In this document: positions 6,212 through 8,806 of the stretch, piece after piece | How the letters are laid out: every line of letters starts with the position of its first letter | How positions within the stretch are numbered: the first letter of the stretch is position 1 | Source of the DNA: Candidatus Limnocylindrus sp. | GTDB taxonomy: Bacteria > Chloroflexota > Limnocylindria > Limnocylindrales > Limnocylindraceae | Direction of reading: 5' to 3' | Assembly: GCA_964228585.1 (NCBI GenBank) | Contig: CAXRAV010000012.1 | Location: forward strand, 1 to 26,186 | Length of the DNA: 26,186 nt | Program-made: the position numbers and the translations under genes | The notes under the pieces: generated by a model | What the model was told of the DNA's origin: nothing | Seen by the model: only the letters and a program-made list of their open reading frames with translations | Database searches by the model: none

Positions 6212-8806
6212 CTATTCGCGTGGCGCAGCCTTGTGGCGCTGCATGGCCGCTCGTCGGGAGAGGTTTACACGACCTTGTCGATCGACCTCCATGACAACCA
6301 CCATGATCTCATCGCCAACGGCAACCTCGTCTTCAACCGTATTGACTCGGTAGTCAGCGAGTTCGCCGATGCGGACGAGCCCCTCCTTCCCAGGAAGGAT
6401 TTCAACAAAACAGCCGAAGCCCATAATGCGGGTCACCTTGCCCATGTACAAAGCGCCCACCTCGACCTCTTTAGTGATGCCATTGATAGCATCGAGTGCG
6501 CGTTTGGTGCGCTCTGGGTCGCTCGAAGCGATCTGTACGGTTCCATCATCTTCGACATTGATGTTGACCTGGAAATCATCTTGCAGCTTGCGAATCACTG
6601 CTCCGCCCTTGCCGATGATGTCACGAATCTTCTCAGGATTGATCTTGATGGTGGTGATTCGCGGGGCAAAATCTGAAAGTTCTGGTCGCGCCGTTGAGAT
6701 CACCGCATCCATCTTGTCCAGGATCTCAAGTCGCGCGGCAAGCGCATCCTTTAGTCCTGTTCGAATGATCTTTCCTGTGATTCCCTGGATCTTGATGTCC
6801 ATTTGCAAGGCTGAGATTCCCTCACGGGTCCCCGTCACCTTGAAGTCCATGTCGCCGAAGGCGTCTTCTTTCCCAAGAATGTCGGTAAGGACCACAAACT
6901 CGCCATCTGGTTCAGACATCAGACCCATTGCCGCACCAGCAACTGCGGCCTTGATCGGTACGCCCGCATCAAGCAACGCCAAGCTCGAACCACACGTGGA
7001 GGCCATCGAGGTGGAACCATTTGAGGTTACGCACTCTGAGACCACGCGAATTGTGTATGGAAACTCTTCCGCGGATGGAAGAACTGGGATGAGCGCTCGC
7101 TCAGCGAGTGCACCGTGTCCAATCTCTCGTCGCCCAGGTCCACGCATCGGCTTGTTCTCACCCGTGCTGTACGGCGGCATGTTGTAGTGATGCAAATATC
7201 GCTTCGTTGCAACCGGCGAGATCGTATCCAGGCGTTGTGCCTGGGCAATCGGACCGAGCGTTGCAATGCTGAGCGCCTGCGTCTCACCACGCGTGAAGAG
7301 GCCCGTGCCGTGGGCACGTGGCAGGAGTCCAACCTCAACGGTGATCGGGCGGATCTCATCCACCTTTCGCCCGTCGACGCGAATGCCTTCCTTCATGGTG
7401 AGCGCTCGAGCAGTCTTTTTGTGCATGTAGCCGAATAGGTTCTTGCCGAGACGTGCCTTGCGGCGTGCCGTTTCCAGGAGCGCCTTCGGATCACCCTTTC
7501 CGCTTCGGGCCGCACGGATCGAGTCACTGATCCCCTCCTTGACCGTGGTGAGTCGTTGAGGGAGCTCGGCGGCGAGGAGGAGCAGTAGCTCGGCGGTTGC
7601 CTCTGCATCGGTCCCTGCGCGGTGTGTTGGGACTGTCGCTACGCCGTAGATGCGCGCCAGATCACCGAGCTTGAATGACTCGCTCTCTGGGTACGCCTCT
7701 CGGAAGAGGACAAACGTATCCAGGTACTGCCCCTGCTCCGTGGCGAAACTGCGGCCCTTGCCGAGCGCTTCGTCGAGGAACGAGACATCAAAGCCCAAGT
7801 TGTGACCAACAAGGATTGCTCCCTTTGCGAAGTCGGCGAACTTTTCTGCCGCCTCTTTTGGCGTGATGCCCTTCTTCAGGTCAGCCGTGGTGATGCCGTG
7901 CATCTGCGCGCCGACGATTGGATTGCCGGCATTGACGAGCGTGCTCCAACGGTCGGTGATCTTGCCACCCTTGATCTTCACGGCAGCAACCTCAACGAGA
8001 TCTGAAAGCTTCGAATCAAGTCCCGTGGTCTCGGTGTCAACCACGACAAATGTACCGCCGTTTGCAGCGGCCTCTGCGAAGGTGAGGACACTATCTACGC
8101 CAGGCTCAATGTATGGAACGCGCTTCGCCTTCCCTACCTTTGCGCGGAGCTGCTCCTGAAGGGAGATCAGCGCCTTGATGGCATCGTGACCGAACTCGAT
8201 CGCCTCGGCCATTTTCGCTTCGTTGATCAGATTCGCGCCAGCTTCGACCATCATGATCGCGTCAGCTGTTCCCGAGACTACAAGGTCGAGATCGCTCGTC
8301 TCGAGCTGCTCAAAGGTTGGGTTCAAGATGAACTTGTCGTCGACAAGGCCAACGCGAACAGCACCAATTGGCCCAAGGAAAGGAATCTCCGAGATTGTGA
8401 GCGCCGCTGATGCAGCGATCGTCCCGAGGATATCCGGATCGTTCTCCTGATCCGCGCTCAGTACCGTGATGACCACCTGGACGTCGTCCTTGTAGCCCTC
8501 AGGGAAGAGTGGGCGGATCGGTCGGTCGGTAAGTCGAGCAGAGAGCGTCGCGTTCTCTGAAGCCTTCCCTTCGCGCTTGATGTAACCGCCCGGGATTTTC
8601 CCCGCCGCATACATGCGCTCTTCAAATTCAATCGTGAGTGGGAAGAAGTCGAGACCTGGTCGTGGGTCGCTTCGATTTGCGGTGCCGAGGACGACCGTGT
8701 CGCCGTATCGAACCGTTACAGCGCCGCCTGCAAGGCGTGCAATTCGTCCCGTCTCAATGGTGAGTGTCTGACCGCCAAACTCGGCGGATACGGTTGTGAT
8801 TTCCAT
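6212..8806 (-). CDS. pnp: Polyribonucleotide nucleotidyltransferase (PNPase), 864 aa, with an inserted DEDDh exonuclease domain
   Basis: PH1: DFFPLTIEFEERMYAAGKIPGG..KRE, RLTDRPIRPLFP. PH2: RVDGR..DEIRPI, HGTGLFTRGETQ, HHYNMPPYSTGE, RREIGHGALAERAL, SNGSTSMAS, TDILGKEDAFGDMDFKV. KH: IIGKGG. S1: GKV..I..FGCFVEILPGKEGLV. SD GAGGAG before ATG 8806. Confidence 0.98.
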   Translation of the reverse strand: MEITTVSAEFGGQTLTIETGRIARLAGGAVTVRYGDTVVLGTANRSDPRPGLDFFPLTIEFEERMYAAGKIPGGYIKREGKASENATLSARLTDRPIRPLFPEGYKDDVQVVITVLSADQENDPDILGTIAASAALTISEIPFLGPIGAVRVGLVDDKFILNPTFEQLETSDLDLVVSGTADAIMMVEAGANLINEAKMAEAIEFGHDAIKALISLQEQLRAKVGKAKRVPYIEPGVDSVLTFAEAAANGGTFVVVDTETTGLDSKLSDLVEVAAVKIKGGKITDRWSTLVNAGNPIVGAQMHGITTADLKKGITPKEAAEKFADFAKGAILVGHNLGFDVSFLDEALGKGRSFATEQGQYLDTFVLFREAYPESESFKLGDLARIYGVATVPTHRAGTDAEATAELLLLLAAELPQRLTTVKEGISDSIRAARSGKGDPKALLETARRKARLGKNLFGYMHKKTARALTMKEGIRVDGRKVDEIRPITVEVGLLPRAHGTGLFTRGETQALSIATLGPIAQAQRLDTISPVATKRYLHHYNMPPYSTGENKPMRGPGRREIGHGALAERALIPVLPSAEEFPYTIRVVSECVTSNGSTSMASTCGSSLALLDAGVPIKAAVAGAAMGLMSEPDGEFVVLTDILGKEDAFGDMDFKVTGTREGISALQMDIKIQGITGKIIRTGLKDALAARLEILDKMDAVISTARPELSDFAPRITTIKINPEKIRDIIGKGGAVIRKLQDDFQVNINVEDDGTVQIASSDPERTKRALDAINGITKEVEVGALYMGKVTRIMGFGCFVEILPGKEGLVRIGELADYRVNTVEDEVAVGDEIMVVVMEVDRQGRVNLSRRAAMQRHKAAPRE
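7574..8053 (-). other. DnaQ/PolC-type DEDDh 3'-5' exonuclease domain inserted in PNPase (about aa 252-411)
   Basis: ExoI FVVVDTETTGL (D257, E259), DLVEVAAVK, HGIT, ExoII LVGHNLGFD (D340), YLDT, FKLGDLA, ExoIII HRAGTDAEAT (H395, D400). Confidence 0.93.

Follow-up and report, generated by a model that had tools for sequence, protein, structure and literature searches.

The polynucleotide phosphorylase (PNPase) encoded in the window, i.e., the whole stretch of 26,186 nucleotides analysed here, carries a complete DEDDh exonuclease domain between its two RNase PH domains, PH1 and PH2. This domain was gained once, in the ancestor of one clade of the class Limnocylindria, and in most genomes of this clade it is the only domain of the DEDD superfamily. 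Judged from its sequence, the insert is a DEDDh domain of the PolC/ExoDinG type, placed where PH1 passes into the helical linker. PNPase ranks among the best-studied enzymes of RNA decay. The searchable literature contains no account of a natural PNPase that also carries another catalytic nuclease, and no paper on a PNPase with an embedded DEDDh domain was found in the literature searched, in agreement with the first-pass annotation of this DNA, which knew of no description of the architecture.

The host is a freshwater Chloroflexota bacterium of the class Limnocylindria, a group abundant in lakes and soils. The NrnA-like DHH/DHHA1 gene of the window belongs to the same gene cluster as pnp. 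The features are as follows:

2567..4387 (-), RNase J (context)
6212..8806 (-), pnp coding sequence, 864 aa plus stop (coding 6215-8806, stop codon 6212-6214)
6251..6466 (-), S1 domain, aa 781-852 (Pfam)
6482..6655 (-), KH domain, aa 718-775 (Pfam)
6707..7381 (-), PH2 with intact phosphorolytic site (Pfam, motifs, alignment)
7382..7582 (-), three helices, aa 397-435, 440-451 and 455-473 (motifs, AF2)
7583..8047 (-), DEDDh exonuclease domain (PF00929), aa 254-408 (Pfam, NCBIfam, PDB sequence match)
7607..7624 (-), Exo III motif HRAGTD, aa 395-400, with H395 and D400 (motif and alignment, AF2)
7787..7804 (-), Exo II motif HNLGFD, aa 335-340, with D340 (motif and alignment)
8018..8038 (-), Exo I motif DTETTGL, aa 257-263, with D257 and E259 (motif and alignment)
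8054..8164 (-), end of the long PH1 helix, GKxK, loop and short linker helix (motifs, alignment, AF2)
8165..8806 (-), PH1 (RNase_PH and RNase_PH_C), aa 1-214 (Pfam, AF2)
8877..9191 (-), rpsO (ribosomal protein S15), directly upstream of pnp, the classical rpsO-pnp pair (translation)
11079..12122 (-), NrnA-like DHH/DHHA1 protein, between rbfA and truB (context)

The profile searches identify the host protein as a PNPase. Translation from the ATG at 8806 yields 864 aa in a single unbroken frame, as the first-pass annotation had stated, while an alternative GTG start upstream at 8839 would give 875 aa. The protein matches TIGR03591 (polynuc_phos) in two stretches with 930.8 bits (cut-off 525) and the equivalog NF008805 with 924.5 bits (cut-off 471), and Pfam returned two RNase_PH domains, RNase_PH_C, RNase_T (PF00929), KH_1 and S1; a pair of RNase PH domains with KH and S1 C-terminal to them is the domain set of a PNPase. 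Genome searches revealed no second PNPase in the host genome or in its relatives. The phosphorolytic residues of PH2 (R559, R560, H564, S598, S600, D648, D654 and K656) are in place, and its motifs comprise RVDGR at aa 476-480, where the earlier reading had put it (about aa 476), SNGSTSMAS at aa 595-603 and TDILGKEDAFGDMDFK at aa 641-656. Consistently, the view that the PH2 motifs, KH and S1 are intact was supported by Pfam and by residue conservation. Like canonical PNPases (TIGR03591; structures 7ogl, 4aim, 3gcm and 1e3p), the protein keeps the order PH1, linker, PH2, KH and S1, the phosphate- and metal-binding residues and the rpsO-pnp pair; unlike them, it has about 180 extra residues (linker and DEDDh) after GKxK.

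This GKxK motif is conserved at aa 225-228, and the short linker helix at aa 238-248 runs into the insert. PF00929 matches the insert from the first to the last of its 164 model positions with 96.6 bits (cut-off 24, E 3e-27), and both this score and that of TIGR03591 lie far beyond chance. With D257, E259, D340, H395 and D400 the DEDDh pentad is complete (D-x-E in Exo I, D in Exo II, H-x4-D in Exo III). The extra stretch of about 160 aa at nt 7574-8053 (aa 252-411), proposed earlier to hold a full D-E-D-D-h set, passed the HMM search for DEDDh domains, and the Pfam order came out as anticipated (RNase_PH, RNase_T, RNase_PH, KH, S1). The DEDDy-type model PF01612 (Rrp6/RNase D) had no match in the protein at E 0.01, and the Exo III motif contains His and not Tyr. 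Top NCBIfam families for the insert were DEDD-GIY-YIG, PolC and DinG, and the best sequence match among solved structures was the PolC exonuclease domain (2p1j, 9qpc; E 1e-21), which likewise sits inside a host domain (PHP), yet in a DNA polymerase with a proofreading role. In the AF2 monomer (pLDDT 81) the DEDDh domain is confidently modelled and the Exo III helix continues without a break to aa 435. The helices at aa 397-473 may take the place of the canonical all-alpha domain, whose model PF03726 was not detected in the 864-aa protein by Pfam search; in length they resemble the corresponding 84-aa segment of the canonical PNPases of f3 and f5, two other families of the class, with a sequence similarity too weak to align. 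The best PDB fold matches of the model were all PNPases, and the AFDB cluster search returned generic PNPase clusters only.

The fusion is not an assembly artefact, since near and far relatives alike carry it. An insert-bearing pnp in one open frame was found in 6/6 genomes of family f1, 44/44 of f2 and 49/50 of f4, where one match is cut by a contig end, and the same frame recurs on contigs of up to 2.6 Mb, in hundreds of assemblies that stem from at least 8 studies. Furthermore, a 7048-nt DNA contig from an independent run spans window positions 6100-8495 with 7 differences and no indel, and both insert junctions are crossed without indels by this contig and by contigs from RNA libraries. 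Nothing speaks in favour of an assembly or binning chimera, which these data rule out for practical purposes. The domain layout of this PNPase was counted in 913+ database proteins; in the representative library clustered at 50%, most fusions fall into one cluster, which makes that library of little use for counts. The insert is confined to the clade of f1, f2 and f4, while f3 and f5 have canonical PNPases with frames of 737-749 aa, and among 266 other Chloroflexota genomes no match ran through the insert. In line with a single gain, the insert-bearing clade received a support of 100/100 in a tree of the PNPase core without the insert columns, and the inserts themselves are monophyletic in the DEDDh tree (95/92).

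Across 49 sequences with 54-97% identity, the catalytic residues are nearly invariant, with no change at the eight PH2 positions listed above. Purifying selection acts as strongly on the insert as on the core (dN/dS 0.02-0.10 versus 0.01-0.08 for the PH domains), and the insert diverges faster, with 33-41% identity between f1 and f4 compared with 63-73% for the PH domains.

ExoDinG is a DinG helicase with an N-terminal DEDDh exonuclease. All lineages of the class without the insert retain it, and insert lineages lack it: the DinG-type helicase domain PF13307 was present in 16/16 f3 genomes and the 1/1 f5 genome, versus 0/2 in f1, 0/15 in f2 and 1/16 in f4, the latter a fragment. This f4 fragment aside, ExoDinG and the insert are thus mutually exclusive across the class. 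The insert belongs to the same DEDDh subfamily as the exonuclease domain of the ExoDinG proteins of Staphylococcus aureus (8zef, E 3e-17), Bacillus subtilis and Listeria, but neither the insert-bearing PNPase nor, bar this fragment, the genomes of its clade contain the SF2 helicase. Most f2 and f4 genomes hold one PF00929 domain each, and a profile search found no PF01612 (RNase D-type) in genomes of the insert clade. Because other Chloroflexota that lack ExoDinG have a plain PNPase, the link between its loss and the gain of the insert rests on a single evolutionary event. RNase II/R (RNB) was found in 0/101 genomes of the class, f3 and f5 included; the idea that the insert stands in for an RNase R missing specifically from the insert-bearing lineages is not supported, as f3 and f5 also lack RNB and have no insert.

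Regarding the origin of the insert, f2 inserts are 45-51% identical to the exonuclease domain of the class's own ExoDinG, which is above any other group. Two maximum likelihood trees placed the insert with PolC, ExoDinG and BRCT-linked DEDDh proteins and did not nest it among ExoDinG exonuclease domains, and AU tests did not reject a sister position to the ExoDinG exonuclease of the class (p 0.415 and 0.132). Direct descent from this domain would thus be a hypothesis that neither tree supports. In the careful tree the sister of the inserts is a group of metagenomic DEDDh-BRCT proteins (weak support, 75/87) of about 400 aa (P0169, P0193, P0203 and P0207), which share 41-44% identity with the inserts and, unlike them, are stand-alone and end in a BRCT tail. 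As a candidate donor within Chloroflexota this architecture was dismissed, with only the DEDDh part matched in 151 genomes.

On balance, we lean towards an active hydrolytic 3'-5' exonuclease that is mounted on the PNPase ring, acts on RNA 3' ends and has taken over the role of ExoDinG. In PNPase, the helical domain sits on the side of the ring away from S1/KH and borders a pore that leads to the active site (PMC2723993). Following the acquisition of the DEDDh domain by the housekeeping PNPase of the clade's ancestor at the PH1/helical-linker junction, the 39-residue helix would hold the module rigidly, in a position that, judged from the literature on this face, is opposite KH/S1 and next to the side pore to the phosphorolytic site. 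Each trimer would carry three such modules, predicted to be Mg-dependent, and the proposal of the first-pass annotation, an exonuclease that combines two chemistries and bears three DEDDh modules in each ring, is a reasonable reading of the sequence. The most likely substrates would be RNA 3' ends already captured by the ring, and the gain could be phosphate-independent trimming, e.g., of unprocessed rRNA or stalled decay intermediates, as for the exonuclease domain of Listeria ExoDinG, a 3'-5' exoribonuclease on unprocessed rRNA (PMC12774634). The insert would thereby assume an exonuclease role for which sister lineages still rely on ExoDinG. Against the RNA-directed role count the DNA substrates of the closest characterised relatives, i.e., of the proofreading PolC and of B. 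subtilis ExoDinG, the ability of f3 and f5 to manage without RNase II/R and without the insert, and the trees, which do not place the insert with ExoDinG.

Alternatively, the embedded nuclease could act on DNA or RNA-DNA hybrids such as ssDNA 3' ends and R-loops, in a replication-stress or repair role similar to that of Bacillus ExoDinG, with RNA decay left to phosphorolysis alone. The nearest families by HMM and PDB sequence (PolC exonuclease, DEDD-GIY-YIG proteins and ExoDinG) fit this option, as does B. subtilis ExoDinG, which prefers ssDNA, clears R-loops and needs Mn to cut free ssRNA (PMC12525004); moreover, the insert-bearing genomes have no ExoDinG and mostly no other DEDD domain. The host protein is, however, an RNA-threading ring with KH and S1, rRNA precursors are a substrate of the Listeria enzyme (PMC12774634), and the preference of DEDDh enzymes for RNA or DNA is not readable from sequence alone, which leaves a DNA-directed role as a serious but rather unlikely option.

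Two further explanations carry less weight. A nanoRNase finishing the 2-5 nt oligonucleotides left by PNPase, as proposed earlier and akin to Orn, would suit the position of the domain near the product pore (PMC2723993), the membership of Orn and RNase T among DEDDh enzymes, and the fact that no Orn-type gene is possible where PNPase has the genome's only PF00929 domain. Yet such finishing is less needed than was supposed, because the gene cluster of pnp also includes an NrnA-like DHH/DHHA1 gene (window 11079-12122). The Orn and RNase T models are not among the best 25 NCBIfam matches (of 63 for the whole protein and 29 for the insert), and in the trees the relatives of the domain are PolC, ExoDinG and BRCT-linked DEDDh proteins; we consider this role improbable. 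Less credible still is a structural or regulatory domain without catalysis, e.g., for side-pore gating or partner docking. The helical domain that carries the graft influences PNPase activity (PMC2723993) and the insert diverges faster than the PH domains, as such a domain might, but all five catalytic residues are retained across the aligned insert-bearing sequences, down to 33% identity.

The RNA-directed exonuclease on the ring also invites comparison with the eukaryotic RNA exosome, which equally pairs a PH-type ring with hydrolytic 3'-5' nucleases. In the exosome the ring is catalytically dead and Rrp6 (DEDDy) and Rrp44 (RNB) are separate subunits, whereas here the phosphorolytic residues are intact, the ring is predicted to be active, and the nuclease, a DEDDh domain, is covalently attached. 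The analogy to Rrp6 drawn previously is loose, given DEDDy in Rrp6 and a DEDDh of the PolC/ExoDinG type here. In position the insert would be closer to Rrp44 than to Rrp6, since it hangs from the helical domain on the face opposite S1/KH (PMC2723993). A bolder and doubtful extension is that, in the clade's ancestor, the sole DEDD nuclease of the cell relocated, in a physical or a functional sense, from the DNA helicase motor of ExoDinG, which was then lost, to the PNPase ring, creating a bacterial counterpart of the exosome in which RNA captured by KH/S1 and threaded is finished either by phosphorolysis or by hydrolysis on the far face. If true, one protein would serve RNA decay as well as the quality control of rRNA, and perhaps also the removal of R-loops, in organisms devoid of RNase II/R.

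Even in the streamlined Limnocylindrus genomes of 1.0-1.4 Mb, strong selection maintains the additional 160 residues, and the mutually exclusive pattern with ExoDinG provides a concrete, testable idea of what the insert replaces. An active module would show that a bacterium can combine phosphorolytic and hydrolytic decay of 3' ends in a single ring, and it would offer a simple system for studying why exosome-like machines pair two chemistries.

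The pnp gene of the window is a single open frame on the minus strand (6212-8839), and its product P0001, counted from the ATG at 8806, is a polynucleotide phosphorylase (PNPase) of 864 aa. Pfam detected RNase_PH (two stretches), RNase_PH_C, KH_1 and S1 together with a full-length RNase_T/DEDDh match (PF00929; aa 254-408, model positions 1-164 of 164, E 3e-27), as foreseen by the first-pass annotation, which had read the protein as a PNPase with an intact DEDDh domain between its RNase PH domains (PH1 and PH2). NCBIfam likewise returned a PNPase (TIGR03591, 930.8 bits vs. a cut-off of 525), the match being split by the insert into two stretches, and the best models for the insert alone were DEDD-GIY-YIG, PolC and DinG exonucleases. 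All motifs named in that annotation lie where it had placed them, i.e., the catalytic motifs Exo I (257-263), Exo II (335-340) and Exo III (395-400) of the insert, RVDGR (476-480) and the PH2 motifs (595-603 and 641-656). The neighbourhood of pnp is as follows:

Genes around pnp in the window
nusA-infB-rbfA-nrnA-truB-ribF-rpsO-pnp, minus strand: ordinary gene cluster
11079-12122, minus strand: NrnA-like DHH/DHHA1 protein, 347 aa, between rbfA and truB
9224-10099, minus strand: RibF homologue, 291 aa
8877-9191, minus strand: rpsO, with pnp coming next
after pnp, minus strand like the whole cluster: asd, a UDG-family gene, RNase J and ftsK

The position of the NrnA-like gene parallels the actinobacterial nusA-infB-rbfA-nrnA cluster. 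The RibF homologue featured a FAD_syn domain only (aa 27-178), and no flavokinase domain was found in its C-terminal ~110 aa (both Pfam, E 1e-5).

When 5.8 billion proteins were searched by indexed words, 913 of the 8000 candidates scored were matches, and the best 120 of these were without exception (120/120) PNPases with PF00929, stemming from ENA, JGI, NCBI and Logan assemblies with contigs of up to 2.6 Mb. Named taxa among these 120 were Candidatus Limnocylindrus, Limnocylindrales and Chloroflexota, the sole exception being a partial record labelled Verrucomicrobiae. In a scan of species-representative genomes, named fusion records belonged to Ca. Limnocylindrus, Ca. Aquidulcis, Limnocylindrales and variously labelled Chloroflexota MAGs, and in other phyla the DEDDh part alone was matched, not the whole fusion. 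About 90% of the words sampled from 7200-8400 recurred in each of 14 or more freshwater metagenome runs, which belong to 8 studies, and six metatranscriptome runs contained 26-78% of them. The first-pass annotation had advised checking assembly support around the insert, and both junctions are indeed crossed: a 7048-nt contig from one DNA run spans 6100-8495 with 7 differences and no indels, and RNA-library contigs bridge both the C-terminal (6100-7631) and the N-terminal junction (7650-8512, 7596-8099 and 7773-8158). As RNA libraries can contain DNA, the latter contigs show the presence of the pnp fusion and only suggest its transcription.

Purifying selection acts similarly along the protein, with dN/dS values (Nei-Gojobori, against five congeners) of 0.02-0.10 for linker plus DEDDh and 0.01-0.08 for PH1 and PH2. 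In a 49-sequence alignment, D257, E259, D340, H395 and D400 occur in all insert-bearing rows, and R559, R560, H564, S598, S600, D648, D654 and K656 of PH2 are invariant, so that the catalytic and phosphorolytic residues judged intact on first reading are both conserved. A low-depth RNA contig (2.6) of run X15 omits 189 bases inside PH2/KH (6650-6840; shorter side 21 letters), which probably reflects another organism or an assembly artefact. P0135, a 442-aa protein called on a 229-kb contig, starts partway through the DEDDh domain of an insert of the PNPase type that shares 61% identity with the query insert; in this one assembly, the pnp gene may be split or have been given a wrong start.

Within the class Limnocylindria (families f1-f5, f1 including the genus Limnocylindrus), we searched 151 genomes, counting four unpublished ones (G087, G123, G091 and G106), which enter the tallies but are nowhere the sole basis of a conclusion. 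The insert and both flanks aligned in one open frame in 6/6 f1, 44/44 f2 and 49/50 f4 matched genomes, f2 belonging to the same order as f1 and f4 to another; together with the 913 database matches, this establishes the fusion in relatives. Complete insert-bearing frames measured 829-1265 aa; two shorter f4 frames had 693 and 410 aa, and the match of the latter ends at query residue 181, cut by the contig end. The f3 and f5 genomes, in contrast, carry a canonical PNPase (frames of 737-749 aa, the query being matched as 1-229/238 plus 462/467-856) and match the DEDDh core only in another protein of about 890 aa (RNase_T + DEAD + Helicase_C_2), the exonuclease-helicase fusion ExoDinG. Across the phylum, one contiguous match was obtained in 35 of 301 genomes, all of f1, f2 or f4 and including the window's own. 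Nearly all of the other 266 matched in at least two pieces (G355 in one piece, one genome not at all); in every row listed, these matches start at or after query residue 401 and thus do not run through the insert. In a PNPase tree with the insert columns removed, f1, f2 and f4 form one clade (100/100) and f3 and f5 another (100/100), and the inserts are monophyletic (95/92). The insert was thus gained once, in the ancestor of a Limnocylindria subclade.

By HMM and PDB sequence searches, the insert falls in the PolC/ExoDinG/epsilon-like group, with matches to 2p1j (1e-21), 9qpc (1e-20), Staphylococcus aureus DinG (8zef, 3e-17) and also Cas2-DEDDh. The f2 inserts share 45-51% identity with the exo domains of the class's own ExoDinG and at most 46% with other sampled groups. 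In both DEDDh trees (a 169-row quick tree and a 111-row LG+C20 tree), Chloroflexota ExoDinG domains keep their own clade and the insert clade is placed, weakly supported (75/87), beside DEDDh proteins of about 400 aa that carry a BRCT domain; no protein of this DEDDh-BRCT layout turned up in 151 Chloroflexota genomes. Constraining the inserts with Limnocylindria ExoDinG cost 16 and 40 log-likelihood units (AU p 0.415 and 0.132), and this grouping is thus neither rejected by the AU test nor supported. Three library proteins (P0181, P0236 and P0270) are UvrD-type helicases of about 820-880 aa with a DEDDh domain nested inside the UvrD_C region, i.e., another host with a nested nuclease of the same kind. 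Further multi-domain proteins were P0140 (PolC-like, 1631 aa), in which two DEDDh domains lie in tandem, and P0147 (GIY-YIG/UVR, 1045 aa), in which there are three.

A PF00929 census of 61 genomes (each at least 90% complete) revealed exactly one DEDDh domain, within PNPase, in 11/17 f2 and 16/20 f4 genomes; f3/f5 genomes mostly have exactly one, located in ExoDinG, and f1 genomes have, besides the PNPase insert, a short DEDDh ORF (about 200 aa). This stand-alone f1 ORF (about 200-246 aa; G000:C68:1077-1544, L002, in the window's own genome) is mostly absent from f2 and f4, and its branch in the DEDDh tree is very long. An f3 ExoDinG query retrieved from f1, f2 and f4 only the PNPase insert, a few stand-alone DEDDh ORFs and one helicase fragment (107 aa, on a small f4 contig). 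Consistently, Helicase_C_2 was matched in 16/16 f3, 1/1 f5, 0/2 f1, 0/15 f2 and 1/16 f4 genomes, the last being this fragment. Other Chloroflexota families commonly have a full-length ExoDinG, which is therefore ancestral in the phylum. Insert gain and ExoDinG loss constitute a single evolutionary contrast, and other Chloroflexota without ExoDinG have a plain PNPase. Of 34 insert-clade genomes, 33 gave no PF01612 (RNase D, PolA exo) match, and in the remaining one the only match was the PNPase insert itself; PolA of this clade may have no recognisable proofreading domain. Weak PF01612 matches occur in 900-1100 aa frames of f3, and none in f1, f2 or f4. The RNB domain of RNase II/R was found in 0/101 class genomes (99 of them at least 90% complete; the window's own and 100 relatives), with 11/14 control genomes matched and the controls behaving as expected. 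Taken together, in these domain searches the insert is the only DEDD-superfamily nuclease found in most insert-bearing genomes, and no RNase II/R was found there.

An AF2 model of P0001, run on the 49-row alignment, reached a mean pLDDT of 81 and a pTM of 0.72, and its top PDB fold matches are all PNPases. The DEDDh core is confident (strands 252-260, 270-279, 282-291 and 331-334 plus the usual helices), low confidence being limited to the channel loop 64-81 and residues 522-564. On the N-terminal side, PH1 helix 196-224 gives way to a loop and then a short helix (238-248); the Exo III helix continues unbroken to residue 435 and is followed by helices 440-451 and 455-473 into PH2. These post-insert helices span 77 aa vs. 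84 aa for the canonical helical segment of f3/f5 and are too divergent to be aligned with it, so that the model places the insert only approximately, at the PH1/helical-domain boundary. According to one PNPase study (PMC2723993), the helical domain is found on the far side of the torus from S1/KH and contributes to a side pore leading to the active site, through which phosphate and NDPs probably pass. With this geometry, three DEDDh modules would decorate the ring face opposite S1/KH.

In the best-supported reading, which we regard as moderately probable, the insert is predicted from sequence to be a catalytically active 3'-5' exonuclease of the hydrolytic type that is anchored to an active phosphorolytic ring and works on RNA 3' ends. 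RNA is the favoured substrate because the insert resides in the only PNPase of the cell, a protein that also has KH and S1, and because the exo domain of Listeria ExoDinG is a 3'-5' exoribonuclease removing unprocessed rRNA (PMC12774634), and PNPase also takes part in rRNA quality control (PMC2723993). The main alternative, a role on DNA or R-loops, is possible but rather unlikely; it draws on ExoDinG of Bacillus subtilis, which favours ssDNA, breaks down the RNA strand of hybrids and requires Mn to attack free ssRNA (PMC12525004). A nanoRNase role appears improbable given the NrnA-like gene at 11079-12122, and a non-catalytic role, against which the conserved catalytic pentad speaks, appears still less probable.

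PNPase and the DEDDh domain are each genuine and known. Their combination, of which the first-pass annotation knew no description, is not mentioned in the full-text literature searched, nor in the available part of a DinG-family review (PMC11981726). Databases label the fusion proteins PNPase or ‘DNA polymerase III epsilon subunit family exonuclease’, and the ESM Atlas contains PF01138+PF00929 clusters, in which Chloroflexota is the commonest phylum among members of known taxonomy. To this, our analysis adds that RNB was not found class-wide, that the insert has exceptions within the class, and that insert and ExoDinG are complementary in their distribution.
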